Shown here: positions 8,836 to 53,052 of the stretch, in pieces
Layout of the letters: each line of letters begins with the position of its first letter
Numbering within the stretch: position 1 is the stretch's first letter
Source: Bacteroidota bacterium
GTDB taxonomy: Bacteria; Bacteroidota; Bacteroidia; Bacteroidales; VadinHA17
NCBI GenBank assembly: GCA_025350595.1
Contig: JANXXP010000273.1
Span: 1,988 to 65,987 of the forward strand
Length of the DNA: 64,000 nt
Direction: 5' to 3'
Notes under the pieces: model-generated
Database searches by the model: none
What the model was told of the DNA's origin: nothing
What the model saw: the letters and a program-made list of their open reading frames with translations, nothing else
Program-made: the position numbers and the translations under genes

Positions 8836-10566
8836 ATGAATAAAAATAAATTTGATATTCTTAAGCTGAAAGGCAAATTAGGTAAAATCAGGGACTGGAT
8901 GAATGCACATCATATTCCTCCAAAACTGCTGTTTTTCCTCCTTGGAATAATTTCAACGATCTGGTTTCTGATCAGAGTCATACCAAAACCCTCACGGGCA
9001 ACTTATCCATGCATGCAGGTTGCAGCACCGTTGATGTCGGGTTTTGTTGTTTACCTGCTATCACTGGGAGGTATTACCCTGGCTTTGAAAAAAGCAGGAA
9101 AGAATCTTGCCGGTGCAAGATACATGGCGGCCGGATCTTTTATACTTGTTGCCGCTGCGGGATTGATATTTACCCTGACAAACGGAACAGAATTTTCTTT
9201 TGCAGGAATACAGGCTTTGACTAAACAGGGACCTGATGATGGCCCAAACCAACCGTTTGGAAAAGCCCAGGGAGTAAATCCTGGCAGAGTAGTTTGGATA
9301 TGGAACCCTGAGGCTACAAATGAAAACTGCACAACCAATTTTCAAACAAAAGACTGGTACTGGAAACCCGAAAATACCAATGAAAAAGTGGTTGGAAATA
9401 TGTTTCGATCAGTTCTGAATAAACTGTGTGACAAAAAAACTGCAGCTAAATCATGGGATCTTCTTTTTCATTCTTTCAACATTAAGAAAAATAAAAGTGA
9501 TAAAGGTTATACCAAAGGAGAAAAGATCTTTATTAAAATCAACCAGGGAACCTCACGATGGCTATTAAGCCAGCAGGATAAAGATAATGGGTACTACTAT
9601 CCTGAAACCCTGAAACCAGAGGAAACCAGACGAATAACGAGCCTTGCTCCCACTGAAACCGGACCGTATATTGTTCTTGAAATCCTAAGAGAACTGGTAA
9701 ACGAAATGGGTATAAGCCAGTCAGATATAGCAGTGGGCGATCCGATGACGGATATTTACGGACATAATTTCGATATCTGGGTCAAAGAATTTCCAGGTGT
9801 TTCATATGTTGATAAATTCTCTGCTTCACATGGGCGTACATTGGTTTATCCTACAACAAATGATCTTCTTTTTTATTCCGACAAAACCCAGCAGGATAAG
9901 TTATTTGATGTTATTGAGAAGGCTGATTACCTGATTAATGCGGCTAATCTGAAACCTCATTTAACAGCTGGTATTTCTTTGACTGCAAAAAACCATTTCG
10001 GATCGCAGGCAAGAGCTACAGCAATGCATCTTCATTATTCACTCCCCGGAAGAGGTAATACAGGCTATCATAAGTATCGCGTTCTTGTTGATCTGATGGG
10101 AAGCAAATACCTGGGACAAAATACTTTGCTTTACATGGTTGATGGCTTGTTTGGAGGAGGAGCAAGCGAGACTAAAGGTCCTGTAAAATATTTCATGGCA
10201 CCCTTCAATAATGACTGGTGCAACTCGATATTTTTGTCCCAGGATCAGATTGCTCTGGAATCGGTTTGCTATGATTTTCTGAGGACTGAATGGAACGGGA
10301 TTAATAAACATAATTCCGCAAACAATTCAAGTGAGAGCCATCCTAACTGGAACGGTGTTGATGACTATCTTCATCAGGCGGCGGATCCTTCAAACTGGCC
10401 TGCAGGAATTGTATATGATCCTGACAACAGCGGAAAACCTTTAGCCAGCCTCGGTGTTCATGAGCATTGGAACAATCCGGAGAAGAAACAGTATACCCGG
10501 AATTTGGGTTTGAAAAATGGAATAGAACTGGTTTCTATTCCTGATTCTCTTGTAAAATTTAACTAA
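8836..10566 (+). CDS. DUF362-family protein (paralogue A) with an N-terminal membrane anchor
   Basis: DUF362-like blocks are 'KIFIKINQG', 'ADYLINAANLKPHLTAGISLTAKNHFGS' and 'LLYMVDGLFGGG...SQDQIALESVCYDFL'. Two N-terminal hydrophobic segments flank the block 'RVIPKPSRATYPCMQVAAP', which is identical in the paralogue at 23801. Confidence 0.65.
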   Translation: MNKNKFDILKLKGKLGKIRDWMNAHHIPPKLLFFLLGIISTIWFLIRVIPKPSRATYPCMQVAAPLMSGFVVYLLSLGGITLALKKAGKNLAGARYMAAGSFILVAAAGLIFTLTNGTEFSFAGIQALTKQGPDDGPNQPFGKAQGVNPGRVVWIWNPEATNENCTTNFQTKDWYWKPENTNEKVVGNMFRSVLNKLCDKKTAAKSWDLLFHSFNIKKNKSDKGYTKGEKIFIKINQGTSRWLLSQQDKDNGYYYPETLKPEETRRITSLAPTETGPYIVLEILRELVNEMGISQSDIAVGDPMTDIYGHNFDIWVKEFPGVSYVDKFSASHGRTLVYPTTNDLLFYSDKTQQDKLFDVIEKADYLINAANLKPHLTAGISLTAKNHFGSQARATAMHLHYSLPGRGNTGYHKYRVLVDLMGSKYLGQNTLLYMVDGLFGGGASETKGPVKYFMAPFNNDWCNSIFLSQDQIALESVCYDFLRTEWNGINKHNSANNSSESHPNWNGVDDYLHQAADPSNWPAGIVYDPDNSGKPLASLGVHEHWNNPEKKQYTRNLGLKNGIELVSIPDSLVKFN

Positions 10567-10577
10567 AATATATAATT

Positions 10578-11705
10578 ATGAAAAATGCTTTGTTCTTAAT
10601 CTGTATTATTTGTTTTGTAAATCTGCTTCATGGTCAGAGTAATAACAGCAAGACCTACAAACTCCTTATCGGAACATATACCACTTCTCCAGCCAGTGAT
10701 GGTATTTATGTTTATGATTTCGACTCCGGTACAGGTGCAGTTAACCTTAAATCCAAAATATCGGGTGTTGATAATCCTTCTTATCTGGCAATCAGCCACG
10801 ACGGAAAATACGTATATGCAGTTAATGAGGTAAAAGACGGAGGTGTAAGCTCATTCCTTTTCGACAACAACTCCGGGGAACTAAAGTTTTTAAATAAAGT
10901 CAGTTCCGGTGGATCAGGTCCATGTTATGTTTCCGTTGATGATAAAAACAAATATGTGTTGGCTGGTAATTATAACAGCGGCAGTTTTGCAGCTATCCCA
11001 CTGAAAGATGACGGTTCTATAGGTAGTGATCCACAATTCATCCAACAGGAAGGAAGCAGTATAAACAAAGCTCGTCAGCAAGGCCCGCATCTGCACTGCA
11101 CTGTTCTTTCACCCGACAACAAATATTTACTCACTTCAAATCTTGGTACCGATAAAGTAGGAGTGTATAAGTTTGATGTTACCAAAGTTTCTCAACCTTT
11201 AACACCTGCAGATCCACCATTTATCTCAGTAAAAGCCGGAAACGGTCCGCGTCATCTCACATTTCATCCAAATTCAAAATTCGCTTATCTGATCAGTGAA
11301 ATGGCAGCTTCAATAACAGTATTTGATTATAAAGACGGGAAACTAACCGAAAAACAGTCTATTACTATGTTGTCTTCTGAGTTCAAAGGGAAAGTAGGAG
11401 CCGCTGATATTCATATTTCAGCCGATGGTAATTTTTTGTATGGATCAAACAGAGGTGAAGCCAATGAAGTGGTAATATATTCTATTGATAAAAAGGGAAT
11501 GTTAACATATGCAGGAAGACAATCCTGTCAGGGTAAAGGCCCCCGTAATTTCAGTATTGATCCATCTGGTAATTTTCTTCTTGTTGCCAACCAGGATAGT
11601 AATGACATAGTGTTTTTCAAACGTAATCAAAAGACCGGAATGTTGACTCCGACAGGAGATAAGATTCAGATTAGCAAGCCGGTATGTCTGAAGTTTATCA
11701 ATTAA
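10578..11705 (+). CDS. Seven-bladed beta-propeller lactonase (6-phosphogluconolactonase/YbhE family) with a signal peptide
   Basis: Family blocks include 'LIGTYT', 'NPSYLAISHDGKYVYAVNE', 'GSGPCYVSVD', 'GPHLHC', 'GNGPRHLTFHPN' and 'GPRNFSIDPSGNFLLVANQDSN'. The Sec leader is MKNALFLICIICFVNLLHGQ. Confidence 0.8.
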   Translation: MKNALFLICIICFVNLLHGQSNNSKTYKLLIGTYTTSPASDGIYVYDFDSGTGAVNLKSKISGVDNPSYLAISHDGKYVYAVNEVKDGGVSSFLFDNNSGELKFLNKVSSGGSGPCYVSVDDKNKYVLAGNYNSGSFAAIPLKDDGSIGSDPQFIQQEGSSINKARQQGPHLHCTVLSPDNKYLLTSNLGTDKVGVYKFDVTKVSQPLTPADPPFISVKAGNGPRHLTFHPNSKFAYLISEMAASITVFDYKDGKLTEKQSITMLSSEFKGKVGAADIHISADGNFLYGSNRGEANEVVIYSIDKKGMLTYAGRQSCQGKGPRNFSIDPSGNFLLVANQDSNDIVFFKRNQKTGMLTPTGDKIQISKPVCLKFIN

Positions 11706-11755
11706 AAATATTAAAATCTATCTTCTTTATTCTAACCCTTGAGAATTACCTGATC

Positions 11756-16668: not shown

Positions 16669-16684
16669 TTCTGTAAAAACACAA

Positions 16685-21740: not shown

Positions 21741-22715
21741 ATGAAAAATTACATGACTGTCAGAAAGACTGGAAAGAACTTATTGTTATTGACAATAGCA
21801 ACATGCTTTTTACTCATCATCAATGAGAATAAATCATTTGCGCAAAACCAGGTAAAAAAGGTTCCTGAATCACACATTAAACTAGCATTGAATGCTTTCT
21901 GTTTCAACGATTTACTTCTGACTAAAGGAACTCCTGAAAAGCCAGCTTTTACCTTATTTGATCTTCTCGATTGGTGCGCTGTGCAGAACATTGAAGCAAT
22001 TGATATAACCGGTTATTATATCCCCACTTATCCGGAAGTGCCATCGGATGAATATATATATGCACTGAAAAGTAAAGCCTTCAAACTGGGTATCGAAATT
22101 AGCGGTACAGGCATTCGTAATAATTTTGCGTCACCCGATCCGGCTGTTAGAAAAGCTGATGTTGAAATGGCTAAAAAATGGATCATTGTTGCAGAAAAAT
22201 TAGGTGCACCTGTTATCAGGCTATTTGCAGGAGCCATTCCAAAAGGATATGAAAACAAGTGGGATGAAGTTGCCGGATGGATGATTGAATGTTTCAAAGA
22301 GTGTGCAGCTTTCGGTGAGCAACATGGTGTTATCATTGGCATTCAGAATCATGGAGACATGCTTCAGACTGCAGAACAATGTATTAAAGTTGTAAAAGCG
22401 GTAAATTCCAAATGGGCCGGAATTATTCTTGATACGGGTAATTTTAAAGTTTCTGATCCTTATTCTGACATCGAAACTATTATTCCATATTCAGTAAACT
22501 GGCAGATGAAGGAAAGCGTTTTTGGGAACACAAGCGAAGTAAAAACCGATTATACAAGGGTAATGAAAATAATAAAAAAGAGTGGCTACCGCGGATATAT
22601 CCCTATTGAAACATTGAAACTTGTAGGCAAGGTCAAACCTTATGACCCATTTGTACTTGTGCCTCAGATGATGAAAGAATTGCATGCTTCTCAGGAAATG
22701 GTTTATAATAATTAA
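21741..22715 (+). CDS. Xylose-isomerase-like TIM-barrel protein (sugar phosphate isomerase/epimerase family) with a Sec leader
   Basis: Family pattern: 'GAPVIRLFAG', 'GVIIGIQNHG' and 'GIILDTGNF'. The N-terminus is 'KNLLLLTIATCFLLIINENKSFAQ'. Confidence 0.75.
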   Translation: MKNYMTVRKTGKNLLLLTIATCFLLIINENKSFAQNQVKKVPESHIKLALNAFCFNDLLLTKGTPEKPAFTLFDLLDWCAVQNIEAIDITGYYIPTYPEVPSDEYIYALKSKAFKLGIEISGTGIRNNFASPDPAVRKADVEMAKKWIIVAEKLGAPVIRLFAGAIPKGYENKWDEVAGWMIECFKECAAFGEQHGVIIGIQNHGDMLQTAEQCIKVVKAVNSKWAGIILDTGNFKVSDPYSDIETIIPYSVNWQMKESVFGNTSEVKTDYTRVMKIIKKSGYRGYIPIETLKLVGKVKPYDPFVLVPQMMKELHASQEMVYNN

Positions 22716-22738
22716 TAAACCCAATCTGTTTTAAAATT

Positions 22739-23011
22739 ATGAAAAGATTCTCGGATTCAACAGCAAAAGAAAAGAGCACTGATTCATCTAACCGGAGGGA
22801 TTTCATAAAGAAGGCTTCAATTGGTGGTTTAGGTGATGGAATTGGCCTGGCTCTTGATTGCGGTCCGGGTATGTTACTTTCAGACGCCATAAGACTTGCC
22901 AATCTCCTCGAGCCTTTTAACCTGATGTGGTGTGAGGATATGCTTACTGGGGACTATACACTATATGGTAATGAACCAAAACCCTTTACAAAAGATGTGC
23001 TTTTTCATTAA
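22739..23011 (+). pseudogene. Remnant of a third Tat-targeted enolase-superfamily gene
   Basis: The twin-arginine leader 'SNRRDFIKKASIGGLG' is joined directly to 'LALDCGPGMLLSDAIRLANLLEPFNLMWCEDML'. That segment aligns with the mid-barrel 'LCADHFGHFDVNNAIRFGKAMDKYRLAWLEDMV' of 26371-27861. The ORF ends after 90 aa, against 450-500 aa for the intact paralogues. Confidence 0.6.
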
Positions 23012-23032
23012 TATCAAATATAATTTAACAAT

Positions 23033-23734
23033 ATGAAAACTAGAAATATTTTTTCAGTACTGCCGATGATGATAATATTTTCCGGAATCGGAATATTTGA
23101 AAGTTGCCAGTCTGGTAAAATTGCTTACAAGGGAACACCTTTCAACGATTCAGTTTACAAATCCGGACCACAAATCATTCCCGGCAAATTGCAGTGCGAA
23201 TATTATGATTTTGGAGGTGAAGGAGTTGCTTATCATGATAGCGACTCAATCAACTCAGGGAGTGGAAAGCTGAATCCTGCTGATGGTTCTTATCTGAATG
23301 AATTCAGGATCAAAGAAGCTGTTGACATTTCATACACAAAATTCAGGGATCCTGCCATAGATAACAATCCCTATAATTTGGTAGGACCTGAAAAAGATCA
23401 GTTTTACGTCGGATGGACAGCTCCGGGAGAATGGACCAAGTATACAGTAAATGTTAAAGAAACAGGAACTTACCAGCTTGGAATAATGTACACATCAAAC
23501 CAGAACGGGAAAATTTCCATTTCAGTTAATGATCTTGATAAAACAGGCCCTCTGCCTGTTTCCTCAACATTTGTCGCTGCAGACAGTATTGCATGGAGGC
23601 AATGGCATCACTGGAACTACATAAATAAACTTGCAAAAATTGAGCTTCAAAAAGGTATCCAGACCATTACTATTCATACAGTTGAGATTGGCCAGATGAA
23701 CTACGATTTTATTAATTTTGAATTAAATAAATAG
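23033..23734 (+). CDS. CBM6/CBM35-like carbohydrate-binding lipoprotein
   Basis: The lipobox is 'FESC'. 'IIPGKLQCEYYDFGGEGVAYHDSD', '...YVGWTAPGEWTKYTVNV' and '...GTYQLGIMYTS' match the CBM6-type pattern. Confidence 0.7.
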   Translation: MKTRNIFSVLPMMIIFSGIGIFESCQSGKIAYKGTPFNDSVYKSGPQIIPGKLQCEYYDFGGEGVAYHDSDSINSGSGKLNPADGSYLNEFRIKEAVDISYTKFRDPAIDNNPYNLVGPEKDQFYVGWTAPGEWTKYTVNVKETGTYQLGIMYTSNQNGKISISVNDLDKTGPLPVSSTFVAADSIAWRQWHHWNYINKLAKIELQKGIQTITIHTVEIGQMNYDFINFELNK

Positions 23735-23800
23735 TATATTGGCATTGTAGAAATAAGCAAAATTCAACCCATTTTCATAACCCAATTAAGATCAAACAAG

Positions 23801-25381
23801 ATGATAAAAGAAGAAAGATTTCGGAAACTCCCGACCTGGTTACAAAAAACAATGTTGTTTTTAACTAAAATCAAAGTTCCTGCAAAAGTAATATTCATAG
23901 TGATTTCAGTATTGGCAACAATCTGGTTTCTATTCAGGGTTATTCCAAAACCTTCAAGAGCAACCTATCCCTGTATGCAGGTGGCAGCCCCAATTATGTC
24001 AGGTTTTGTTATCTGGCTGATCTCCATCACAAGCGCCACTTTTGCTTTCAAAAAAGCTAAACATAAATTTTCCCAGGCCAGGTATATTGCTGCAATTGCG
24101 TTCTTACTGCTTGGAATTTCAGCCACTTATGTGTTTATGACGCAAGCATCTACAGATACGAAAGCGGCCAGTCTCGACATTTGGTATAAACCAAATATTC
24201 CGCTTGGAGTGGCCAAAGGAGAATTTCCTGGCAGAGTTGCATGGGGACATAACTCTGCAATTGCTTCATGGGATGGAACAACCGGATTCTGGTGGGAGGA
24301 TCGCTTTAATAATCAGCCGGAAACTGATAAGCTTCTCACTGTAACATTGAAAACTCTTACAGGCCTTAAAAATGAAAAAAAATCATGGAATGCATTGTTT
24401 GTATTTTTCAACAAGTCAAAACATAATGTTGATGCCGGATATAAGCCCGGACAAAAAATTGCAATCAAAGTTAATCTGAACAATACCTATTCTCACGAAA
24501 GCAATAATGAAATCAATGCCAACCCTCATCTGATTTTATCTTTGTTAAAGAGTCTGGTAAATGAAGCAGGTGTTTCCCAGGAAAACATTACTGTTGGAGA
24601 CCCAAGTCGTTTTATGACCAATAATGTATATGACAAGCTTCATTCGGCTTATCCCAATGTTCATTACATTGATCATAATGGCGGAGACGGACGTGAAAAA
24701 GCTTCTTTTGTTGAAAATGCAATTCCTTACTCTGTAGATAATGGGAAGGTAGCAACAGGATTGGCAGCCAGTTTCGTTAATGCTGATTATATAATTGATA
24801 TGGCATTAATGAAAGGGCACGTTGGTCAGGGAGTAACTCTTTGTGCCAAGAATTTTTTCGGTTGTACAAGCATCGAGGATGACTGGCACAAAAATGCACA
24901 TTCAAGCGGTTTCAGCCAGAATAAAAAAGGATTGCATACCTACTCTGTTTATGCTGACTATATGGGGCATAAAGATCTGGGTGGCAAAACTATGCTGTTT
25001 TTAATCGATGGCATTTACAGTAATAAATTTGTCGATAAAGTACCAGCTTATAAATGGGCTCTACCTCCTTTTAACAATAACTGGCCTGGAAGTCTTTTTG
25101 CTTCTCAGGATGGCGTTGCGATTGATGCCGTAGTACTTGACTTTGTTCTTGCAGAATGGCCCGATGCACCGGACCTGATGTACAGCGATTTTTCTGTTAA
25201 CGAGAGTGCTCTGGCTGATAACCCTCCATCAGGAACAGTTTATGATCCTGAACGTGATGGGACAAAACTGGCAAGTCTTGGCGTTTCAGAACATTGGAAC
25301 AACTCTTTAGAAAAGAAGTACAGCCGAAACCTGAAAACAGGAAAAGGCATCGAACTTATATATTCAAGGGTTACAAAATAA
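23801..25381 (+). CDS. DUF362-family protein (paralogue B) with an N-terminal membrane anchor
   Basis: It has the same architecture as 8836-10566. The motif 'FRVIPKPSRATYPCMQVAAP' is identical, and 'KIAIKVNLN', 'ADYIIDMALMKGHVGQGVTLCAKNFFG', 'LFLIDGIYS', 'SQDGVAIDAVVLDFV' and the C-terminal 'LASLGVSEHWNN' correspond. Confidence 0.65.
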   Translation: MIKEERFRKLPTWLQKTMLFLTKIKVPAKVIFIVISVLATIWFLFRVIPKPSRATYPCMQVAAPIMSGFVIWLISITSATFAFKKAKHKFSQARYIAAIAFLLLGISATYVFMTQASTDTKAASLDIWYKPNIPLGVAKGEFPGRVAWGHNSAIASWDGTTGFWWEDRFNNQPETDKLLTVTLKTLTGLKNEKKSWNALFVFFNKSKHNVDAGYKPGQKIAIKVNLNNTYSHESNNEINANPHLILSLLKSLVNEAGVSQENITVGDPSRFMTNNVYDKLHSAYPNVHYIDHNGGDGREKASFVENAIPYSVDNGKVATGLAASFVNADYIIDMALMKGHVGQGVTLCAKNFFGCTSIEDDWHKNAHSSGFSQNKKGLHTYSVYADYMGHKDLGGKTMLFLIDGIYSNKFVDKVPAYKWALPPFNNNWPGSLFASQDGVAIDAVVLDFVLAEWPDAPDLMYSDFSVNESALADNPPSGTVYDPERDGTKLASLGVSEHWNNSLEKKYSRNLKTGKGIELIYSRVTK

Positions 25382-25428
25382 ATAATACATAAAAAAACTT
25401 AACTAATTCTAACCAAAAACCTTATACT

Positions 25429-26361
25429 ATGAGCAAAAGAATACTTTTAATTTCAGCCTTTATTTTGGGATACTTTTTTACATATGCTCAAAATGTTGGA
25501 TCCTCACCGGAATATATTAAAGCACTTACTTCTGAATGGAAAGGCGAGCGTTTTGCCGATGGAAGACCAAAGGTTTCCGATGCAATACTTGACAGATTGA
25601 AAAAAATTTCAATTGAAGAGGCCTGGGGAGTTTTAAGGAACAAAGGGTTTCAAAATCAATTTGAAGGTGACTGGACAATAATTAATCCTGATGAAGCAAT
25701 GACAGGCCGTGTGGTAACAGCTCAGTATATGCCCCTAAGACCTGATCTTGAGAAACAGGTTAAGGAACAGGGTAAAATTGAGAACAGAGCTCAGAAGGGT
25801 GGAACTAACTCATGGCCAATTGATATTTTGACCACAGGTGATGTATATGTTGCTGATGCTTATGGCAAAATAGCTGATGGTACATTAATCGGCGACAACC
25901 TTGGAAACTCAATCTATGCCAAGTCGCAAAGAGGTGTCGTTTTCTATGGTTCGGTGAGAGATCAGGAAGGCCTTTCTGAAATCAAAGGATTCAACGGATG
26001 GATTAAGGGAGCAGATCCTTCATACATACAGCAAATGATGCTGACTTCCATAAACGCACCAATTAGGGTTGGACGCGCAACAGTATTACCTGGTGATATT
26101 GTTCTTGCGAAAAAATATGGAGTCATCTTTATCCCTGCTTATCTTGTCGAAGACCTCGTATTGACTTCCGAAGTTACAGCCCTTCGCGATGAATTTGGAC
26201 ATCAGCGTCTGCGTGAAAAGAAATATCTCGCAGGACAGATTGATAGTCAATGGACTGAAGAAATCAAAAAAGACTTTCTTGACTGGCTGAATAAATATCC
26301 CGGCAAACTTCCTATGACAAAGACAGAACTGGATAATTATCTTAAAGACAGAAATTATTAA
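25429..26361 (+). CDS. RraA-like (class II aldolase / dimethylmenaquinone-methyltransferase fold) protein with a Sec leader
   Basis: The RraA pattern is 'GDVYVADAYGKIADGTLIGDNLGNSIYAKSQRGVVFYGSVRD'. The leader is MSKRILLISAFILGYFFTYAQ. At 310 aa it is longer than a canonical RraA. Confidence 0.7.
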   Translation: MSKRILLISAFILGYFFTYAQNVGSSPEYIKALTSEWKGERFADGRPKVSDAILDRLKKISIEEAWGVLRNKGFQNQFEGDWTIINPDEAMTGRVVTAQYMPLRPDLEKQVKEQGKIENRAQKGGTNSWPIDILTTGDVYVADAYGKIADGTLIGDNLGNSIYAKSQRGVVFYGSVRDQEGLSEIKGFNGWIKGADPSYIQQMMLTSINAPIRVGRATVLPGDIVLAKKYGVIFIPAYLVEDLVLTSEVTALRDEFGHQRLREKKYLAGQIDSQWTEEIKKDFLDWLNKYPGKLPMTKTELDNYLKDRNY

Positions 26362-26370
26362 TCTACAATC

Positions 26371-27861
26371 ATGAAAAGTATATTACAACAGATTGCCGAT
26401 AAAAGCAGACAGAAAGAAAAAGCCGAAGCTGACGCTATCAAAGCAGAACTTGCCAATCCTTCTACACCAAATGATCGTCGTAATTTTCTCAAAAAAGCTG
26501 CTCTTGGAGGCATAGCCCTTGGAGGAATGATGAGATTCTCTATCGAAGATACAATTGCTCAAACAACCTCTAACTTTCAACGCTCCTCAGCACCCTCAGA
26601 ACTGAAGATTACAGATATGCGTATTGCAGTTACCGGCAATGTTGGCCGCACAACAATTATCCGTATAGACACAAATCAGGGTATTTATGGCTTAGGTGAA
26701 GTAAGAGATGGCGCAGACGAGCGTTATGCTCTTATGCTTAAAAGTCGCATTTTAGGATTGAACCCCTGCAACGTTGAGATGCTTTTTAAAATAATAAAGC
26801 AATTCGGATATCATGGTCGTCAGGGTGGTGGAGTGTGTGCTGTTGAAATGGCTTTGTGGGACCTTTGCGGAAAAGCTTATGGTGTTCCGGCATGGCAGCT
26901 TCTCGGGGGTCGGTATCGCGATAAAATCAGACTTTATGCAGACACACCTGGTGCAAGAGATCCTCAGGCATTTGCCCTTACAATGAAGAAGAGAGTTGAA
27001 GAACAGGGATTTACCTGGCTAAAAATGGACCTTGGTATTCATGTTGTTGCCAATATTCCGGATGCACTTGTTAACACCAAAATCTGGGACGGTGCAACAG
27101 GCCAGTATGATCTTAAAGAATATATGGGTTATGGAAATACCTTACACCCTTTTACCCAGGTTCAGATCACCGATAAAGGGTTGGCAGGATTAACGGAATA
27201 TGTTGAAGATGTCAGAAATGCAGTTGGGTATGAAATACCTCTCTGTGCTGATCACTTCGGCCATTTTGATGTAAACAACGCGATCCGCTTTGGGAAAGCT
27301 ATGGATAAATACAGACTTGCATGGCTCGAAGACATGGTTCCATGGTTCTACACTGACCAGAACAAAATGTTATCTGATGCTCTTGAAACACCTATCGCAA
27401 CAGGCGAAGACATCTATATGCTTAAAGGAGGTTTTAAACCTTTATTAGACGCTCGTGCTGTTGACATAATACAACCAGACCTAGGTACGTCAGGCGGTCT
27501 TCTGGAAACAAAAAGAATCGGGGATTATGCTGAGGAATGTGCTGTATCAATGGCAATGCACATGGCTGGATCTCCTGTATGTTTTATGGCAAACGTTCAT
27601 TGCGCAGCTGCAACTCAGAACTTCCTGGCGCTCGAACATCACAGTGTTGATTCTCCATGGTGGGGTAATATGGTCAGGATGACTGGCAGCAAACCAATGA
27701 TTACAAAAGGTTTCGCAAACGTCCCTCTCGATTCTCCGGGATTGGGAATTGAACTCAATGATGAAGAGGTTAAAAAACATCTGAATCCTAAGGCAAAAGG
27801 TTACTTTGAGCCAACTCCTGAGTGGGATGAAAAACGTTCACACGACAGGCTCTGGAGCTAA
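26371..27861 (+). CDS. Enolase-superfamily dehydratase (MR/MLE family) with a twin-arginine leader
   Basis: 'NDRRNFLKKAALGGIALGG' is a Tat motif. MR/MLE blocks are 'GIYGLGEV', 'AVEMALWDLCGKAYGVPAWQLLGG', 'LCADHFGH', 'LAWLEDM', 'IATGEDI' and 'DIIQPD'. Confidence 0.8.
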   Translation: MKSILQQIADKSRQKEKAEADAIKAELANPSTPNDRRNFLKKAALGGIALGGMMRFSIEDTIAQTTSNFQRSSAPSELKITDMRIAVTGNVGRTTIIRIDTNQGIYGLGEVRDGADERYALMLKSRILGLNPCNVEMLFKIIKQFGYHGRQGGGVCAVEMALWDLCGKAYGVPAWQLLGGRYRDKIRLYADTPGARDPQAFALTMKKRVEEQGFTWLKMDLGIHVVANIPDALVNTKIWDGATGQYDLKEYMGYGNTLHPFTQVQITDKGLAGLTEYVEDVRNAVGYEIPLCADHFGHFDVNNAIRFGKAMDKYRLAWLEDMVPWFYTDQNKMLSDALETPIATGEDIYMLKGGFKPLLDARAVDIIQPDLGTSGGLLETKRIGDYAEECAVSMAMHMAGSPVCFMANVHCAAATQNFLALEHHSVDSPWWGNMVRMTGSKPMITKGFANVPLDSPGLGIELNDEEVKKHLNPKAKGYFEPTPEWDEKRSHDRLWS

Positions 27862-27898
27862 AAATGAAGTTAAAATAAAATTATTACAGACATAAATA

Positions 27899-29155
27899 AT
27901 GGGAAACCAGCTTTCAATGAAACGTTGGTATCGATTGATACCTATAGCGTTTATTACCTATAGTCTTGCTTATCTCGATCGTGCTAATTTCGGATTCGCC
28001 GCAGCAGGTGGAATGGCAAAAGATCTGAATATTACTGCAGCAATGTCTTCCCTGCTTGGCTCTCTTTTCTTTCTTGGCTATTTCTTCTTTCAAATCCCCG
28101 GGGCTGTCTATGCATCAAAAAAAAGTGCCAAAAAACTAATATTCTGGTCACTGATTCTTTGGGGCGTACTTGCAATGGCAACAGGGATGATAAGAAATGT
28201 TTCTGCTTTGATTGTAATAAGATTTTTGCTGGGTGTTGTTGAAAGCGCCGTCATGCCTTCAATGTTAGTTTTTTTAAGCATGTGGTTTACAAAATCTGAA
28301 CGTTCAAGGGCTAATACTTTTCTGATTCTTGGCAATCCGGTTACAATATTATGGATGTCTGTTTTATCCGGATATTTAATACATTCTGTTGGCTGGCGCT
28401 GGATGTTTATACTGGAAGGTCTGCCAGCAATAGTCTGGGCATTTTTATGGTGGAAACTCGTAGTTGACAGGCCATCAGACGCCAAATGGCTGACAGATGA
28501 TGAAAAGAATGATCTGCAGACACAACTGGATAAAGAGCAACTGGATATTAAACCAGTTAAGAATTACTCAGTAGCATTCAGGTCAAGGATTGTCATTCTG
28601 CTTTGTTTTCAGTACGCTTTATGGTGCATTGGCGTATATGGTTTTGTAATGTGGCTGCCATCTATTATTAATGCAGCTCCTGACTCAAACATTGTAAAAA
28701 CCGGATGGCTGGCATCAGTACCATATCTATTAGCTATCATTGGCATGCTAACAGCATCATATTACTCAGATAAAACATTAAAGAGAAAATCGTTTATCTG
28801 GCCATTTCTTCTGATCGGCTCTTTAGCCTTTTATGGTTCCTACCTGATTGGCACTACCAACTTCTGGCTGTCATATACACTTCTGGTTATTGCAGGCGGA
28901 GCTATGTACGCACCTTATGGACCATTCTTCGCAGTTATTACTGAAGTTTTGCCGCGTAATGTATCTGCTGGTGCTATCGCACTGATCAATAGTCTCGGTG
29001 CTTTGGGATCTTTTGTTGGTGCTTATATTGTGGGTTATTTAAATGGAACTACAGGCGGATTTGGTGCTTCTTATATCTTCATGGCCGGCTCTCTCTTTGT
29101 TTCAGCTATATTGACTATGATTGCAATAAAAAGTAGTAAGGTAAAGCAGGTTTAA
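27899..29155 (+). CDS. MFS transporter, anion:cation symporter (hexuronate/aldonate/phthalate permease-like) family
   Basis: About 12 hydrophobic segments are visible. The N-terminal 'YSLAYLDRANFGFAA' and the loop 'LGVVESAVMPSMLVFLSMWFTKSERSRA' are typical of the ACS family. Confidence 0.85.
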   Translation: MGNQLSMKRWYRLIPIAFITYSLAYLDRANFGFAAAGGMAKDLNITAAMSSLLGSLFFLGYFFFQIPGAVYASKKSAKKLIFWSLILWGVLAMATGMIRNVSALIVIRFLLGVVESAVMPSMLVFLSMWFTKSERSRANTFLILGNPVTILWMSVLSGYLIHSVGWRWMFILEGLPAIVWAFLWWKLVVDRPSDAKWLTDDEKNDLQTQLDKEQLDIKPVKNYSVAFRSRIVILLCFQYALWCIGVYGFVMWLPSIINAAPDSNIVKTGWLASVPYLLAIIGMLTASYYSDKTLKRKSFIWPFLLIGSLAFYGSYLIGTTNFWLSYTLLVIAGGAMYAPYGPFFAVITEVLPRNVSAGAIALINSLGALGSFVGAYIVGYLNGTTGGFGASYIFMAGSLFVSAILTMIAIKSSKVKQV

Positions 29156-29176
29156 ATTGCTCCTAATTCCAAAGAG

Positions 29177-30115
29177 ATGATAACAATAAATAAGTTTGAC
29201 GTCCAAAAACTCAAAGGGAAATTGGGTAAAATAAGAGACTGGATGAGAATTCATCATCTTCCTCCATTTCTTCTTTTTTTTACTCTGGGTATAATCTCGA
29301 CAATCTGGTTTGCAGAATTTCCCGGAGTTGTTTATACTGATAAATTTTCTTCAAAACATGGAAGGACACTTATTCATCCAACGTCAAAAGAGCTACTCTT
29401 TTATTCAGACAAGAGTCAGAATGACAAACTCTATGACATTATGGAAAATGCAGATTACCTGATAAATACTGCAATGTTTAAACCGCACGTATCGGCTGGA
29501 ATCTCATTAACTGCCAAAAATCATTTTGGTTCACAAGCCAGGGAAACTGCAGGGCATCTGCATTATGCTCTTATCAATCCCAGGTTTGGAGTCCCGTCAA
29601 ATGGAGGTTACCATCAATACCGTGTTCTTGTTGACCTCATGGGTTGTAAATACCTCGGGCAGAACACCGTTCTTTACCTTGTTGATGGATTATTTGGCGG
29701 AGGAGGAACAGAAACGTCTCCGCCTGTAAAATATTTTATGGTGCCTTTCAATAGCGACTATTGCAACTCAATATTTGTTTCTCAGGATCAGGTCGCTCTT
29801 GAATCAGTGTGTTTCGATTTTCTTAGAACCGAATGGAACGGAATAAATAAGCACGATCCTATAAACAATAAACCGGAAAATGGTCCGAATATGAATGGAG
29901 TGGATGATTATCTTCATCAGGCTGCTGATGCAGCTAACTGGCCTGCCGGAATAGTCTACGATCCTGACAACAGCGGCAAACCTTTACCATCACTGGGCAC
30001 TCACGAGCACTGGAATAATGCTGAAAAGAAGCTGTATTCGCGAAATCTTGGTTTTGACAAAGGCATTGAACTGGTCTCAATTCCTGACACACTTGTAAAA
30101 AATAAATTGAAATAG
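29177..30115 (+). CDS. DUF362-family protein (paralogue C) carrying a roughly 270-codon in-frame internal deletion
   Basis: Residues 1-45 align with residues 1-45 of paralogue A ('KLKGKLGKIRDWM..HH.PP.LLFF.LGIISTIWF'). Residue 46 onward ('AEFPGVVYTDKFSSKHGRTL') aligns with paralogue A from about residue 317 ('KEFPGVSYVDKFSASHGRTL'). The PKPSRATYPCMQ motif and the N-terminal half of the domain are absent. Confidence 0.7.
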   Translation: MITINKFDVQKLKGKLGKIRDWMRIHHLPPFLLFFTLGIISTIWFAEFPGVVYTDKFSSKHGRTLIHPTSKELLFYSDKSQNDKLYDIMENADYLINTAMFKPHVSAGISLTAKNHFGSQARETAGHLHYALINPRFGVPSNGGYHQYRVLVDLMGCKYLGQNTVLYLVDGLFGGGGTETSPPVKYFMVPFNSDYCNSIFVSQDQVALESVCFDFLRTEWNGINKHDPINNKPENGPNMNGVDDYLHQAADAANWPAGIVYDPDNSGKPLPSLGTHEHWNNAEKKLYSRNLGFDKGIELVSIPDTLVKNKLK

Positions 30116-30143
30116 ATTGATAAACAACTTCAAATAATCTTAT

Positions 30144-31280
30144 ATGAAAGACAACCGCAGAGATTTTCTCAAAAAAGGAGCATCACTTGCAGCAGCAATA
30201 TCTGTTGGTGGCATAGCATCTGCAATTTCTTCCCCGGCAGTATCTGATAAAAAAGCTGCCAAAACGAAACCATATGTAAAGGATGCAGGGATAAAATTTG
30301 CTTTCCTTATGGGGCCTACTTCACCAAAAGTTCCTTTTGCACGGCAAATGGGAGTACTTCATGCAGTATCAGGAGTAGAAAGATTGCAGGGAGCAAAGGC
30401 ATGGGATCCGGCTGCTATAACTGCAACTAAGGAGATCTGGGCTAAAGAAGGAATAAAATGGACTGTGGTTGAAGGACCACCATCATTGGGAACCCTGACT
30501 AAACTCGGATTGGAAGGAAAGGATGAAGAGATTTCAAACTTCATTACATTTATGAAAAATCTTAAGCAATACGGAGATGTGGATGTTATCTGCTACAACT
30601 GGATGCCTGTCATTAGCTGGGCCCGTACCAAAATGGACAACCCAGGTCGTGGGGGAGCGCTTGTTACTGCTTTTGATTATGAAGATATGAAAGGAAAGCC
30701 TTTGACACAATATGGTGAAATTTCAAAAGAACTTCTCTGGAAAAACCTTGAATATTTTCTTAAAGCAGTTGTTCCTGAAGCAGAGAAAATCGGAATGAAC
30801 CTGTCTCTACATCCGGATGATCCTCAAGTTGATAGTATTCAGGGGATTTCACGTATCCTGAATTCAGTATCTAACTTCGACCGGATGCTTGATATTTATC
30901 CAAGCAAATACAACGGATTAACAATGTGCCAGGGGAACTTTTCATTAATGGGGGCAGATATCCCGGCACTGGTGAGACGATGGGGTAAAAGAGGAGTAAT
31001 TAACTTTGTTCATTTCAGAAGTGTACAGGATCTTAGCGGTGTGATACCAAGCACTAAATTCACAGAGTGTTTCCACGATGAAGGCCAGATTAACATGTAC
31101 GAAGCTATGAAAGCCTATTATGATATAGGATTCAATGGTCCTCTCAGACCCGACCATGTGCCTACTATGTTTGGAGAAACAAACGAACGACCAGGTTATA
31201 TGACTCTGGGTAACCTATACGCAACAGGATACATCAGGGGTCTTGCAGAATCTGTTGCAAAAGAAAGAAGCAAATCCTAA
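30144..31280 (+). CDS. uxuA: Mannonate dehydratase (UxuA) family protein with a twin-arginine leader
   Basis: UxuA blocks are 'ICYNWMPVISWARTKMD', 'LSLHPDDPQ', 'TMCQGNF', 'VHFRSV', 'MYEAMKAY' and 'LRPDHVP...RPGY'. The N-terminus 'MKDNRRDFLKKGASLAAAISVGG' is Tat-like. The canonical N-terminal WRW(Y/F)GP block is not evident. Confidence 0.75.
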   Translation: MKDNRRDFLKKGASLAAAISVGGIASAISSPAVSDKKAAKTKPYVKDAGIKFAFLMGPTSPKVPFARQMGVLHAVSGVERLQGAKAWDPAAITATKEIWAKEGIKWTVVEGPPSLGTLTKLGLEGKDEEISNFITFMKNLKQYGDVDVICYNWMPVISWARTKMDNPGRGGALVTAFDYEDMKGKPLTQYGEISKELLWKNLEYFLKAVVPEAEKIGMNLSLHPDDPQVDSIQGISRILNSVSNFDRMLDIYPSKYNGLTMCQGNFSLMGADIPALVRRWGKRGVINFVHFRSVQDLSGVIPSTKFTECFHDEGQINMYEAMKAYYDIGFNGPLRPDHVPTMFGETNERPGYMTLGNLYATGYIRGLAESVAKERSKS

Positions 31281-33522: not shown

Positions 33523-34560
33523 ATGAATTCCAGAATAGTAACATTTGGAGAAATAATGTTAAGACTTGTTCCACCAGGATTTGAACGTTTTAGTCAGGCG
33601 AGGCAATTCAATGCTTCGTATGGAGGTGGAGAAGCTAATGTGGCCGTTTCACTTGCCAACTTCGGACTGAAAGTCGATTATGTAACACGTATTCCGAAAA
33701 ATGATATTTCAGAAGCCTGCCTTATGGATCTGAGAAGATATAATGTGGGTACTGATAAAATAATCTTTGGCGGAGACAGGATGGGCATCTATTTCCTTGA
33801 AAACGGAGCAGTTGCACGTGCAAGTAAAGTAATTTATGATCGTTCAAATTCAGCAATTGCGGAGATTCAGCCAGGAATGATTAATTGGGATTCAGTCTTT
33901 GAAGGAGTCTCCTGGTTTCATTGGACAGGAATTACTCCTGCAATATCAGAAGGGGCCGCTCTCGTATGTAAGGAGGCTATCGAAACAGCAAATAAGAAGG
34001 GAATTACTGTCTCTACTGATCTGAATTTCAGAAAAAACCTTTGGAAATGGGGTAAAAAGGCATCTGAAGTTATGCCTGATCTCGTTGCCGGTTGTGATAT
34101 AATCCTTGGCAATGAGGAAGATGCAGCAATGGTATTTGGTATTCATCCAGCCGGAACCGATGTTACCAGCGGACATGTTGAAGCAGCTGCCTATGAATCT
34201 GTTTGCCGCCAGTTGATGGTAAAGTTTCCACGAGCCAAAAAGGTAATTGTTACACTACGCGGATCTGTTAATGCAAATCACAATACCTGGTCGGGGGTTC
34301 TTTTTGATGGAAAGAAACTATACCAGGCTCCTACCTACGATATAACCCATATTGTTGACAGAGTTGGTGGAGGTGACAGTTTTATGGGAGGACTCATCTA
34401 TGGTTTGATTACCTTTACTGGAAATGATCAGCGGGCTCTTGACTTCGCAGTTGCGGCTTCATGTCTAAAGCATACTATCATTGGAGACTTTAACCTGGTA
34501 ACTGTTAAGGAAGTAGAAACTCTCATGGGAGGAGATGGCTCAGGAAGAGTATCTCGGTAA
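33523..34560 (+). CDS. kdgK: 2-dehydro-3-deoxygluconokinase (PfkB family)
   Basis: The opening 'IVTFGEIMLRL' and the blocks 'GGGEANVAVSLANFG' and 'DRVGGGDSFMGGLIYG' match KdgK-type PfkB kinases. The gene is adjacent to eda. Confidence 0.85.
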   Translation: MNSRIVTFGEIMLRLVPPGFERFSQARQFNASYGGGEANVAVSLANFGLKVDYVTRIPKNDISEACLMDLRRYNVGTDKIIFGGDRMGIYFLENGAVARASKVIYDRSNSAIAEIQPGMINWDSVFEGVSWFHWTGITPAISEGAALVCKEAIETANKKGITVSTDLNFRKNLWKWGKKASEVMPDLVAGCDIILGNEEDAAMVFGIHPAGTDVTSGHVEAAAYESVCRQLMVKFPRAKKVIVTLRGSVNANHNTWSGVLFDGKKLYQAPTYDITHIVDRVGGGDSFMGGLIYGLITFTGNDQRALDFAVAASCLKHTIIGDFNLVTVKEVETLMGGDGSGRVSR

Positions 34561-34623
34561 TTTATCCCAAATGTGTATTAAATAAATTACAGGAAAATAA
34601 ACTAACTAGAAAAGAATCAAAAT

Positions 34624-35313
34624 ATGGCAAGGTTTTCCAGAATTCAAGTTGCAACCAAAATGGCTGAAACCGGTATGGTTCCCGTTTTTTTTCATAAAGA
34701 TTTTGAAACATGTAAAAATGTTGTCACTGCCTGTTACAAAGGAGGAGTTAAAGTGTTTGAATTTACAAACCGGGGAGATTTTGCTCATGAGACTTTTGCA
34801 GCTCTTAATAAATGGGCAGAGGTTGAATGTCCTGATCTGATTCTTGGAGCCGGCTCTGTACTGGATGCTGCGACAGCAGCTCTTTATATTCAACTGGGAT
34901 CAAACTTCATCGTTTCCCCTATACTAAATGAAGAGATAGCTCCGGTTGTAAACCGCAGAAAGATCCTATGGTCTCCCGGCTGTGGTTCTGTTACCGAAAT
35001 ATCAAATGCAGAATCACTGGGAGTTGAAATAGTTAAAATATTCCCGGGATCGCAGGTTGGCGGACCAAAATTTGTTGCAGCAGTAAGAGGCCCTATGCCA
35101 TGGACAAACATAATGCCAACAGGAGGCGTTGAACCGTCAGAAGCAAACCTGACAGAGTGGTTCAAAGCAGGAGTTACCTGCGTTGGAATGGGGTCACAAC
35201 TACTCTCATCAGAAATCATTAAAAACAAAGATTATGCAAAACTTGAAGAGGAGGTTCGGAAAGCACTTGCTATTATTCTGAAACTAAAGGAACTCTATCC
35301 TGTGAAATTATAA
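34624..35313 (+). CDS. eda: KDPG / 4-hydroxy-2-oxoglutarate aldolase
   Basis: 'GGVKVFEFTNRGDFA', 'VEIVKIFPG' and 'IMPTGGV' are the Bacteroidota Eda pattern. The 229-aa size fits. Confidence 0.85.
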   Translation: MARFSRIQVATKMAETGMVPVFFHKDFETCKNVVTACYKGGVKVFEFTNRGDFAHETFAALNKWAEVECPDLILGAGSVLDAATAALYIQLGSNFIVSPILNEEIAPVVNRRKILWSPGCGSVTEISNAESLGVEIVKIFPGSQVGGPKFVAAVRGPMPWTNIMPTGGVEPSEANLTEWFKAGVTCVGMGSQLLSSEIIKNKDYAKLEEEVRKALAIILKLKELYPVKL

Positions 35314-35357
35314 TCTCATTAATTGGCTTAAAATACAAACCTTTAAAAAAGGATATT

Positions 35358-35813
35358 ATGATATTCGATACAATAACAAACAGATCAACATACGCCGGCA
35401 TATCCCCAAGGATAAAAACAGCTCTTGAATATCTGGCAAAAACAGATTTTTCAAAAATGGAGGATGGAAGACATGATCTGGATGGGAACAATTTGTTTGC
35501 TCTGTTGCAGAGATACGATTCAATCCCAAAAGAACAGGGGAAATGGGAATATCACAGGAAATACATCGATATTCAATATATCGTTGAAGGAGTTGAACAA
35601 ATTGGTTTTCAGGATATTGGCAAGATGACAGATACAGTAGAATACAATCCTGATAAAGACATAGCTTTCCAAAGCGGTGAAGGGAATTATGTGACCGTAA
35701 ACAAAAATTCCTTTTGCATTTTCTTTCCTCAGGATTCGCATAAGCCTAAAATAGCAGTCAGCAATGAATCTGCTAAAGTTGTGAAAGTCGTGATCAAAAT
35801 AAAAGCAGATTAG
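35358..35813 (+). CDS. YhcH/YjgK/YiaL (DUF386) family cupin-like protein
   Basis: At 151 aa, it shows the family pattern 'HRKYIDIQYIVEGVEQIG' and '...FFPQDSHKP'. Confidence 0.75.
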   Translation: MIFDTITNRSTYAGISPRIKTALEYLAKTDFSKMEDGRHDLDGNNLFALLQRYDSIPKEQGKWEYHRKYIDIQYIVEGVEQIGFQDIGKMTDTVEYNPDKDIAFQSGEGNYVTVNKNSFCIFFPQDSHKPKIAVSNESAKVVKVVIKIKAD

Positions 35814-35858
35814 ATAACTACATTATTTGAATCGATTCTTTATTTAAAAGAAATATTT

Positions 35859-37179
<1,321 letters not shown>

Positions 37180-37214
37180 TGAAGAAATAGAAATCATTGA
37201 TATAAAAATAATAG

Positions 37215-38117: not shown

Positions 38118-38240
38118 TGCTCCCTGCCCCCCTAAAGGGCATAGCCATTAACCTAAGAGTAGGATGAAAATAAAGAGATTAAAAAAGTTTCCCCCCACCA
38201 GGGCGTGGCAGGCTCTCATTTTGAAGGAGGGGAAATTATT

Positions 38241-49806: not shown

Positions 49807-49891
49807 AAGATCATTTTGAGTTATTTTGGGACCTCTAAGAAACACTAAGATAATCACAAATAACTATTTTGTAACTTGTCCGCTTAAAAAA

Positions 49892-51295: not shown

Positions 51296-51316
51296 TATTG
51301 ATTAATATCAGTTAAA

Positions 51317-51681: not shown

Positions 51682-51769
51682 CTTTACGGAATTCAAATTT
51701 ATTAATTGATTGCAACAAATTGCTACTTTCAATTTTAAAACTTATATTTCACGACAAAATTTTGCACGA

Positions 51770-53047: not shown

Positions 53048-53052
53048 AAATA

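Follow-up and report, generated by a model that had tools for sequence, protein, structure and literature searches.

A gene cluster of a Bacteroidota bacterium encodes leader-bearing sugar-acid enzymes that may act outside the cytoplasm

Gene content of the cluster

We analysed 64,000 nucleotides of contig JANXXP010000273.1 from a Bacteroidota bacterium (the window), in which a near-unidirectional run of genes at positions 1-39300 encodes dehydratases of the UxuA family and the enolase superfamily, an RraA-like protein and several companion enzymes with N-terminal export leaders. Genes are named here by the window position at which they begin. The G+C content is ~39% across the window, the intergenic gaps between 20532 and 31280 measure only 3-66 bp, and central-metabolism genes take over past 39.3 kb. 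Protein families were assigned by Pfam and NCBIfam profile scans of the window proteins, which placed the proteins in the families that an earlier inspection of the letters (the sequence-only reading) had named. The genes on which the argument turns are as follows, with the basis of each assignment in brackets.

4164..5525, + strand: ManD-subgroup enolase-superfamily dehydratase with a twin-arginine translocation (Tat) leader (Pfam, NCBIfam, PDB matches)
8836..10566, + strand: DUF362 protein, second full-length copy, membrane-anchored (Pfam, family alignment)
10578..11705, + strand: seven-bladed beta-propeller lactonase with a Sec signal peptide (Pfam, NCBIfam, N-terminus)
21741..22715, + strand: xylose-isomerase-like TIM barrel (AP_endonuc_2) with a Sec-type signal peptide (Pfam, N-terminus)
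22739..23011, + strand: gene remnant, a Tat leader (NRRDFIKK) and ~28 enolase-like residues (TIGR01409, 18 bits; BLAST)
23801..25381, + strand: DUF362 protein with three N-terminal transmembrane helices (Pfam, family alignment)
25429..26361, + strand: RraA-like protein (class II pyruvate-aldolase or decarboxylase fold) with a Sec signal peptide (Pfam, PDB matches)
26371..27861, + strand: enolase-superfamily acid-sugar-dehydratase-like protein with a long Tat leader (Pfam MR_MLE_N and MR_MLE_C, NCBIfam)
27899..29155, + strand: ACS-type major facilitator superfamily (MFS) organic-anion importer (Pfam MFS_1, NCBIfam)
29177..30115, + strand: DUF362 paralogue of the 8836 type, internally deleted (Pfam, sequence comparison)
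30144..31280, + strand: UxuA-family dehydratase with a Tat leader, NRRDFLKK (Pfam UxuA, NCBIfam)
33523..34560, + strand: PfkB kinase (KdgK) of the 2-keto-3-deoxygluconate (KDG)/2-keto-3-deoxygalactonate type, leaderless, cytoplasmic (domain scan, N-terminus)
34624..35313, + strand: 2-keto-3-deoxy-6-phosphogluconate (KDPG)/2-keto-4-hydroxyglutarate aldolase Eda, leaderless, cytoplasmic (domain scan)
35358..35813, + strand: YhcH/NanQ-like DUF386 protein, leaderless (domain scan)

Conserved export leaders

The sequence-only reading had assigned Tat or Sec leaders to eight N-termini. We judged these leaders by the NCBIfam Tat model TIGR01409, by inspection of motifs and of the n-, h- and c-regions, and by conservation in orthologues, and all eight assignments are borne out. 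Proteins 22739, 26371 and 30144 exceed the TIGR01409 cut-off. Twin arginines and a mildly hydrophobic core, without a TIGR01409 match, are found in 4164 (SRRNALK) and in 53053 (TRRKFIT), a TIM barrel that lies farther along the window, and classical n-, h- and c-regions are present in 21741, 25429 and 10578. In 4164 and 26371, the ManD models start to match only at residues 53 and 79, respectively, and the N-termini of both proteins are therefore additions to the catalytic domain. Predicted cleavage, which in 21741 falls between SFA and Q, leaves Gln at +1 in 21741, 25429, 10578, 4164 and 26371; by the so-called Q-rule, Gln is exposed in most Bacteroidetes signal peptidase I substrates (PMC5837995).

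These leaders are retained by relatives. Among the 120 best UxuA protein clusters (73-95% identity), 118 keep the twin-arginine motif, and metagenome orthologues of two paralogue types of UxuA keep the leader in 46/47 and 40/40 cases. The 26371-type enolase keeps its leader in 67/68 genome and 36/36 metagenome orthologues, the 4164-type enolase in 5/6 and 10/10 orthologues, and the RraA-like protein has a hydrophobic N-terminus in 53/53 orthologues. Orthologues of 21741 in two related loci (L026 and L046; such loci are referred to by L numbers) retain the leader, and leader-bearing orthologues of lactonase 10578 occur in L088, L119 and L120. In total, more than 95% of several hundred orthologues retain the motif, a point on which the sequence-only reading depended.

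The alternative that has to be weighed against export is that the leaders are non-functional, being mis-called starts or relic motifs, and that the enzymes are cytoplasmic as usual. It can draw on the sub-threshold TIGR01409 scores of 4164 and 53053 and on the fact that export is predicted here from sequence, which also weighs against the model that we favour below. The degree of orthologue conservation just described argues against it, as does the pattern of variation within the leaders. In the enolase and RraA-like leaders, codon position 3 is the most variable (0.46-0.47 versus 0.13-0.20 at position 2), which indicates that these leaders are translated in the annotated frame and under selection. 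The first 20 residues of the RraA-like signal peptide drift (~50% non-majority residues), whereas the cleavage site stays fixed and the mature part, which always starts QNVGSSPEYI, is ~91% invariant (9% variable). Finally, an exhaustive search of 50%-identity representatives showed that full-length relatives of 26371 above ~44% identity have RR leaders, whereas those at or below 40% identity mostly begin directly with the catalytic domain. Given the twin-arginine conservation, the codon-position pattern, the fixed mature start and the leaderless distant relatives, we rejected mis-called starts, and we regard cytoplasmic enzymes with functionless leaders as hardly credible. Because the leaders are conserved, an extracytoplasmic location is the natural reading, and our confidence that the proteins are exported at all, judged from these patterns, is much higher than that which we place in the periplasmic sugar-acid model as a whole.

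The leader of 26371 has an additional feature. A conserved, charged, helix-like stretch of ~33 residues (MKSILQQIADK..EKAEAEAIKAEIANPST; window 26371-26475) precedes its DRRNFLKK motif. This segment is kept in >60 orthologues and missing in some paralogues (L088:8123, L090:11162), and it might be recognised by a Tat chaperone or proofreading factor. Another enolase-superfamily relative, P0411 of the representative library, has both an RR leader and a sorting domain for type IX secretion (TIGR04183, 31 bits versus a cut-off of 23), which implies, as far as its domains can tell, a cell-surface or secreted member of the superfamily.

Catalytic motifs of the leader-bearing enzymes

The UxuA homologue 30144 scores 257 bits against Pfam PF03786 (cut-off 23.7); it lies above the cut-off of the subfamily model NF003027 (235 versus 191) and below that of the equivalog model TIGR00695 (158 versus 199.55). 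Its HPDDP, TMCxG, VHFRS and RPDH motifs align with Streptococcus suis ManD (3BAN). For 4164, the closest solved structures are the ManD-family dehydratases 3TW9, 4IHC and 3T6C (E = 1e-135 to 1e-137). This protein has both MR_MLE_N and MR_MLE_C, its HDIHER, IEDP and GELF motifs (metal ligands and D-x-H acid) are present, and it scores 387 against the equivalog NF043051, under the cut-off of 550. In 26371, the metal ligands D, E and E are conserved together with PDL, MH and the His-Asp dyad; the D-x-H histidine has become Phe or Tyr, invariant His residues occur at +1 and +4, and every equivalog score is under its cut-off. The RraA-like protein matches Pfam PF03737 at 61 bits (cut-off 24.5) and PDB entries 5X15 and 3NOJ. 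It keeps VRD, with the Arg-Asp pair that in this family binds pyruvate and metal, in the alignment to the 4-hydroxy-4-methyl-2-oxoglutarate/4-carboxy-4-hydroxy-2-oxoadipate aldolase 3NOJ, and it scores far under the cut-off of the aldolase equivalogs (49.6 versus 179). By these residues, UxuA, 4164, 26371 and the RraA-like protein all look catalytically active, and the possibility that they are non-catalytic binding proteins was rejected since the catalytic motifs are conserved.

UxuA shares its TIM-barrel fold with the xylose-isomerase-like proteins, which raises the possibility that the exported set belongs instead to a periplasmic 3-keto-glycoside route of oxidation, elimination, hydration and reduction, with UxuA as one of the lyase or hydratase steps. 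In Bacteroides and Alistipes, that periplasmic route uses Tat-exported Gfo/Idh/MocA oxidoreductases and xylose-isomerase-like TIM barrels. It resembles the present system in the export of 'cytoplasmic-type' families to the Bacteroidota periplasm, in its non-hydrolytic sugar chemistry and in its leader-bearing TIM barrels, two of which, with AP_endonuc_2 domains and predicted export, are present in the window. UxuA homologues also give weak AP_endonuc_2 matches, and a Tat-exported glucose-fructose oxidoreductase (Tat-GFO) accompanies some of their genes (see below). However, there is no Gfo/Idh/MocA gene, nor any other oxidoreductase of this route, in the window, and UxuA keeps the full mannonate-dehydratase motif set. 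Moreover, glycosides are oxidised at C3 in that route, whereas the enzymes considered here would abstract the alpha-proton of a carboxylate; enolase-superfamily and RraA-like chemistry requires a carboxylate or a 2-oxo acid, not a 3-keto glycoside. We therefore consider membership of a 3-keto-glycoside route very improbable.

An RraA-like/enolase gene pair in related loci

In a scan of one genome per species, close relatives of the RraA-like protein were found in at least 498 genomes, including those of Bacteroidales, Prolixibacteraceae, Draconibacterium, Mariniphaga, Cytophagales, Chryseolinea, Algoriphagus and Rikenellaceae. Eighty RraA-like loci were retrieved and features were counted within 10 kb. 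In 76 of the 80, the RraA-like gene is followed by an adjacent 26371-type enolase gene on the same strand, with a median gap of 68 bp. The same loci encode a BASS-family carrier (42), SusC (26), SusD (24), a FecR anti-sigma factor (15), a second, paralogous RraA-enolase pair (14-15), DUF362 (10), KdgK (7), an ACS-MFS carrier (5) and UxuA (4). Every enolase paralogue is paired with its own RraA partner, all of them are leader-bearing, and the pair often stands directly behind SusC/SusD and ahead of an organic-anion transporter (BASS or ACS-MFS). This gene arrangement suggests that the RraA-like protein and the enolase form a functional couple. The neighbourhood search that the sequence-only reading had proposed thus supports it: adjacency holds across diverse Bacteroidota, and DUF362 and MFS genes co-occur in some loci.

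Tat-UxuA neighbourhoods were counted in 45 metagenome loci of at least 8 kb. An RraA-like gene is present in 29 of them, a 26371-type enolase in 22, SusC/SusD in 20, a pyrroloquinoline quinone (PQQ)-cytochrome c dehydrogenase in 13, an unnamed 324-aa secreted protein in 10, a ManD-type enzyme in nine, DUF362 in eight, ACS-MFS in seven, Tat-GFO in six and KdgK in five. Individual loci show how the genes are combined. In Adhaeribacter radiodurans, genes for an extracytoplasmic function (ECF) sigma factor, FecR, SusC, SusD and three Tat-UxuA paralogues are flanked by two PQQ-cytochrome c dehydrogenases. Cultivable carriers of the module include this species (L001), Algoriphagus halophytocola TR-M5 (L084) and Algoriphagus iocasae DSM 102044 (L083). 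The L088 operon consists of exported enzymes only, plus a carrier, in the order Tat-exported aldo-keto reductase (Tat-AKR), Tat-ManD-like, lactonase, a protein with no assigned function, RraA, Tat-enolase and BASS. In L094, a near relative, RraA, enolase, DUF362, UxuA, BASS, KdgK, Eda, DUF386 and ribokinase genes are contiguous on one strand, and the downstream genes match those of window 33523-39275. Another near relative, L090 (UxuA 96% and KdgK 97% identical to those of the window), has SusC, SusD, enolase, RraA, enolase, RraA, an intact DUF362, UxuA, enolase and MFS.

Comparison with L090 bears on two damaged genes. The sequence-only reading listed three DUF362 proteins, and the family assignment holds for 8836, 23801 and 29177, but 29177 is not intact: ~270 residues have been deleted internally from its DUF362 domain, and it is probably non-functional. 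Similarly, the proposed enolase remnant 22739 does have a Tat leader, but its enolase-like part amounts to only ~28 residues (BLAST to enolase residues 301-328). In L090 the genes are intact and differently ordered, and an intact counterpart of 29177 is present, a comparison which indicates recent rearrangement.

Given this variety of loci, the module may handle acids that do not come from the glycans attacked by the cluster, such as free gluconate, ketogluconate or aldarates produced by microbes nearby, amino-sugar acids, or non-carbohydrate hydroxy or oxo acids, the glycosidase neighbourhood being incidental. The core module is indeed found among very different neighbours (GH28/GH2/AXE1, a sulfatase, RidA/SelA/amidohydrolase, or no carbohydrate-active enzyme (CAZyme) at all), the region in the window has been rearranged and contains gene remnants, and the BASS carriers resemble PanS. 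On the other side, the module runs in the same direction as CAZyme genes and KdgK/Eda, with little space between them, in the window and in L090, L094 and L081, and its best family matches are acid-sugar dehydratases. On this evidence we judge acids unrelated to the local glycans to be an unlikely explanation.

Two further groups of genes were seen in these loci. After RraA-enolase pairs in L008/L016:12488-15467, L019 and L032 lie genes for RidA and a SelA-like pyridoxal phosphate enzyme, whose leaders each contain an RR motif, and for a Sec-leader amidohydrolase; the three may constitute an exported amino-sugar-acid branch. The ~324-aa secreted family (L088:6094-7068; L001:17379-18365, - strand; L047:12398-13372) is without a Pfam or NCBIfam match. 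Its genes sit between the RraA-like and PQQ-cytochrome c dehydrogenase genes in the 10 UxuA loci counted above, and it is absent from the window.

Carriers and the cytoplasmic KdgK-Eda end

The nearest NCBIfam model to the MFS carrier 27899 is the D-galactonate transporter subfamily, and the BASS carriers of related loci resemble the ketopantoate/pantoate carrier PanS, that is, carriers of 2-oxo and 2-hydroxy acids. Domain scans confirm the cytoplasmic KDG kinase and KDPG aldolase that had been described downstream (Eda, 361 bits versus a cut-off of 275), and both are leaderless. The DUF386 gene lies directly behind KdgK-Eda, as it does in L094 and L095, and its product may act as an anomerase on a 2-keto-3-deoxy acid in its cyclic form.

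DUF362 proteins

In 23801, a catalytic-type domain lies behind three N-terminal transmembrane helices, and this domain is predicted to face the periplasm. The stretch that links the first two transmembrane helices of 8836-10566 and 23801-25381 contains the invariant motif RVIPKPSRA[TG]YPCM[QR]. In related loci (L071:1968-4823, L011:14927-17677), variants 916-951 aa long have an added C-terminal Reg_prop beta-propeller, a domain type of periplasmic sensors. A PDB sequence search gave no match to DUF362. The best Foldseek match of its AF2 model (pLDDT 65) is the LarA-like 9Q3K at E = 0.02, so that the predicted fold may be distantly LarA-like, though the match is weak. DUF362 and the LarA N-terminal domain share a Pfam clan, and some LarA-type 2-hydroxy-acid epimerases interconvert gluconate and mannonate (PMC11770544). 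A gluconate/mannonate epimerase would suit a UxuA neighbourhood; unlike the LarA-like nickel-pincer enzymes, however, the DUF362 proteins are membrane-anchored and probably periplasm-facing.

A proposed periplasmic sugar-acid model

We lean, with some reserve, towards the view that Bacteroidota widely possess a module for handling sugar acids outside the cytoplasm and that the region contains one copy of it. The observations are the protein families, the conservation of leaders and of gene order, and the intact catalytic motifs; from these we infer localisation, pathway direction, and the identity of substrates and products as follows. Tat would export, in folded form, three kinds of acid-sugar dehydratase (the UxuA type, the ManD type and the GalD-like enolase), and Sec would export the RraA-like aldolase-fold protein, the lactonase and the TIM-barrel enzyme. 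DUF362 would be anchored in the inner membrane with its domain towards the periplasm. In the periplasm, sugar lactones would be opened to aldonates, which would be dehydrated to 2-keto-3-deoxy acids. The keto-deoxy acid would then be taken up by the ACS-type MFS carrier (by BASS in relatives), and KdgK and Eda, possibly with the DUF386 anomerase-like protein, would convert it to pyruvate and glyceraldehyde-3-phosphate in the cytoplasm. The relative with a type IX secretion domain and the DUF362 variants with a Reg_prop propeller are further pointers to a site outside the cytoplasm.

The sequence-only reading had proposed a periplasmic route that begins with oxidation of the sugars released by glycosidases. 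Its later steps fare well: export, dehydration outside the cytoplasm and the link from uptake to KdgK/Eda fit the conserved leaders, the kept motifs and the gene order of L094. Its first step is unassigned here, since homology queries revealed no recognisable sugar-oxidising enzyme in the window. Related operons do encode exported oxidoreductases together with a lactonase (Tat-AKR in L088, and the PQQ-cytochrome c dehydrogenases and Tat-GFO counted above in 13/45 and 6/45 UxuA loci). The 445-aa PQQ_2 propeller 51710 was considered as an oxidase and rejected because it resembles BamB rather than a quinoprotein dehydrogenase and is encoded outside the cluster. The acids may be supplied by an oxidase encoded elsewhere in the genome, or by sugars oxidised in the environment, such as products of lytic polysaccharide monooxygenases (LPMOs) or gluconate from other microbes.

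Several observations weigh against this model. Searches of the window cluster with PQQ-cytochrome c dehydrogenase, Tat-GFO, Tat-AKR and cytoplasmic GFO sequences found no oxidoreductase. UxuA, 4164, 26371 and the RraA-like protein are all below the NCBIfam equivalog cut-offs, and specific activities are for this reason not assignable. Because its canonical D-x-H acid histidine is replaced, the 26371-type enolase may not be a simple dehydratase, and its reaction may differ from simple dehydration. KdgK lies within 10 kb in just 7/80 RraA loci and 5/45 UxuA loci; a connection with KDG is therefore not a general feature, and KDG is proposed as the imported species from neighbouring genes only. 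If the RraA-like protein were a periplasmic aldolase that splits the keto-deoxy acid to pyruvate, KdgK and Eda would be unnecessary for that branch. The strict pairing of the RraA-like gene with the enolase is not explained by the proposed scheme, and the advantage of dehydration before uptake is not evident.

The glycosidase neighbourhood

The sequence-only reading placed these enzymes among secreted glycosidases. Domain scans confirm members of glycoside hydrolase (GH) families GH9, GH16, GH10 and GH3 in the cluster, together with esterases:

46 and 1824: GH9
1001 and 35859: GH16
11684-13027: GH55-like beta-helix protein
13052: GH10
14149-16668 and 16625-19012: GH3
20532 and 31432: esterases

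These neighbours are the starting point for an explanation in which the exported dehydratase-type enzymes trim oxidised glycans without hydrolysis, acting on aldonate-ended oligosaccharides (for example, products of C1-oxidising LPMOs or other oxidases). Abstraction of the alpha-proton would be followed by expulsion of a 3-O-glycosyl group (or 4-O after dehydration) instead of water, giving a KDG-like acid and a shortened glycan, and the RraA-like protein would stabilise the 2-oxo-acid enolate for a second elimination. The module's position among beta-glucanases and xylanases (GH16, GH3, GH9 and GH10) and the GH55-like beta-helix protein would be explained, as would the position of relatives behind SusC/SusD, importers of oligomers, the exported lactonase and the altered acid-catalyst position of the enolase. 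CBM9 carbohydrate-binding modules bind reducing ends. The existence of DUF362-CBM9-dockerin fusions (PMC5742341) is in keeping with such a role. Nevertheless, the case is one of chemical reasoning only, and many related loci are minimal (sigma, anti-sigma, SusC, SusD, RraA, enolase and carrier) and without a glycosidase, so that small acids fit as well or better. We regard trimming as decidedly unlikely.

A more far-reaching form of the periplasmic sugar-acid model is possible, and we put it forward tentatively. The loci may represent an undescribed, SusC/SusD-linked class that runs a whole 'cytoplasmic-type' sugar-acid pathway in the periplasm, in which the RraA-like protein and the Tat-enolase are a new two-component enzyme and DUF362 is a membrane-anchored enzyme that modifies aldonates or reducing ends. 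Its enzyme set would comprise PQQ, GFO or AKR oxidoreductases, the lactonase, the UxuA, ManD and GalD-like dehydratases and the RraA-like partner, with RidA, SelA-like and amidohydrolase proteins in some loci. In its strongest form, the RraA-like/enolase pair would strip oxidised reducing ends off oligosaccharides by elimination, not hydrolysis. The window itself has no SusC/SusD homologue in positions 1-39300, and thus no adjacent SusC/SusD pair of the kind that defines a polysaccharide utilisation locus (PUL); since the window begins inside a GH9 gene, such a pair may lie upstream.

Relation to known systems

The semi-phosphorylative Entner-Doudoroff, DeLey-Doudoroff and UxuA hexuronate routes use the same enzyme families (dehydratases, PfkB KDG kinase, Eda and ACS-type MFS) and the same order of chemistry. 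In those routes, however, the acid is imported first and all enzymes are cytoplasmic, whereas here the dehydratases have Tat leaders and the carrier would move the product. Periplasmic glucose oxidation is known from the PQQ glucose dehydrogenase and gluconate dehydrogenase of Pseudomonas and Gluconobacter, and Zymomonas mobilis has a Tat-exported, NADP-bound glucose-fructose oxidoreductase and a gluconolactonase. There, too, sugar is oxidised and the lactone opened in the periplasm and the acid passed to an Entner-Doudoroff-type pathway, and the related loci described here encode PQQ, Tat-GFO and Tat-AKR enzymes and an exported lactonase. The known systems differ in ending at gluconate or ketogluconate outside the cytoplasm. 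To our knowledge, dehydratase and aldolase-fold steps have not been described as exported, nor glucose-oxidation systems as tied to SusC/SusD.

The carrageenan PUL of Zobellia galactanivorans encodes DauA-DauD, including the enolase-superfamily DauB, a kinase and an aldolase (PMC5698469). It is similar in placing a sugar-acid route with such enzymes inside a polysaccharide utilisation cluster, and it differs in having no Tat/Sec leaders, RraA-like partner, DUF362 or UxuA. As far as is known, the Dau enzymes act on the imported monosaccharide in the cytoplasm.

The sequence-only reading knew of no described pathway of this kind, and our literature search likewise found no account of exported UxuA, enolase-superfamily or RraA-like proteins. 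The source-database names are merely 'mannonate dehydratase', 'RraA family protein' and 'DUF362'. As judged from the genes, what appears to be new is the presence of familiar enzymes in an unexpected compartment, their linkage to SusC/SusD, and an undescribed, obligate RraA-like/enolase gene pair. Current models of glycan use in Bacteroidota assign only glycosidases, lyases, esterases and sulfatases to the periplasm and place monosaccharide catabolism in the cytoplasm. If the periplasmic model is correct, dehydratase and aldolase-type chemistry would join the periplasmic toolkit, and a set of loci overlooked by current CAZyme-based PUL prediction would be defined, many of them having SusC/SusD but no CAZyme. 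Sugar acids or oxidised oligosaccharides, which could derive from LPMOs or from periplasmic oxidation by neighbouring microbes, would be a nutrient class for soil, sediment and wetland Bacteroidota. The enolase superfamily and the UxuA, RidA, SelA-like and AKR families would supply new natural Tat substrates, and first functional contexts would be available for DUF362, the unnamed 324-aa family and the highly conserved RraA-like clade.

Other features of the window

Nothing in the data pointed to a defence or mobile-element explanation of the region. A promoter and terminator scan of the window, for which the consensus used was not the Bacteroidota one, gave counts that were not above those of shuffles. 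Two further genes of the region were assigned:

23033..23734, + strand: CBM6-containing lipoprotein or secreted protein (Pfam)
37215: ribokinase, leaderless (domain scan)

TIM barrel 53053 had been grouped with the exported enzymes, and its AP_endonuc_2 domain and twin arginines are indeed present. It lies 20 kb away, however, and is not part of the cluster, because the window turns to central metabolism beyond 39.3 kb. At 48217-54042, also outside the cluster, three genes adjoin one another: one for a DoxX-domain membrane protein that is extended considerably at its C-terminus, one for a secreted propeller of the BamB/PQQ_2 type, and that of this Tat-leader TIM barrel. Within the cluster, the starts of open reading frames 16625-19012 and 11684-13027 were probably called too far upstream, and their signal peptides start at an internal Met (MKKISISLL... 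and MKLQKTLL..., respectively); starts at these positions would abolish the apparent overlaps with 14149-16668 and 10578-11705.

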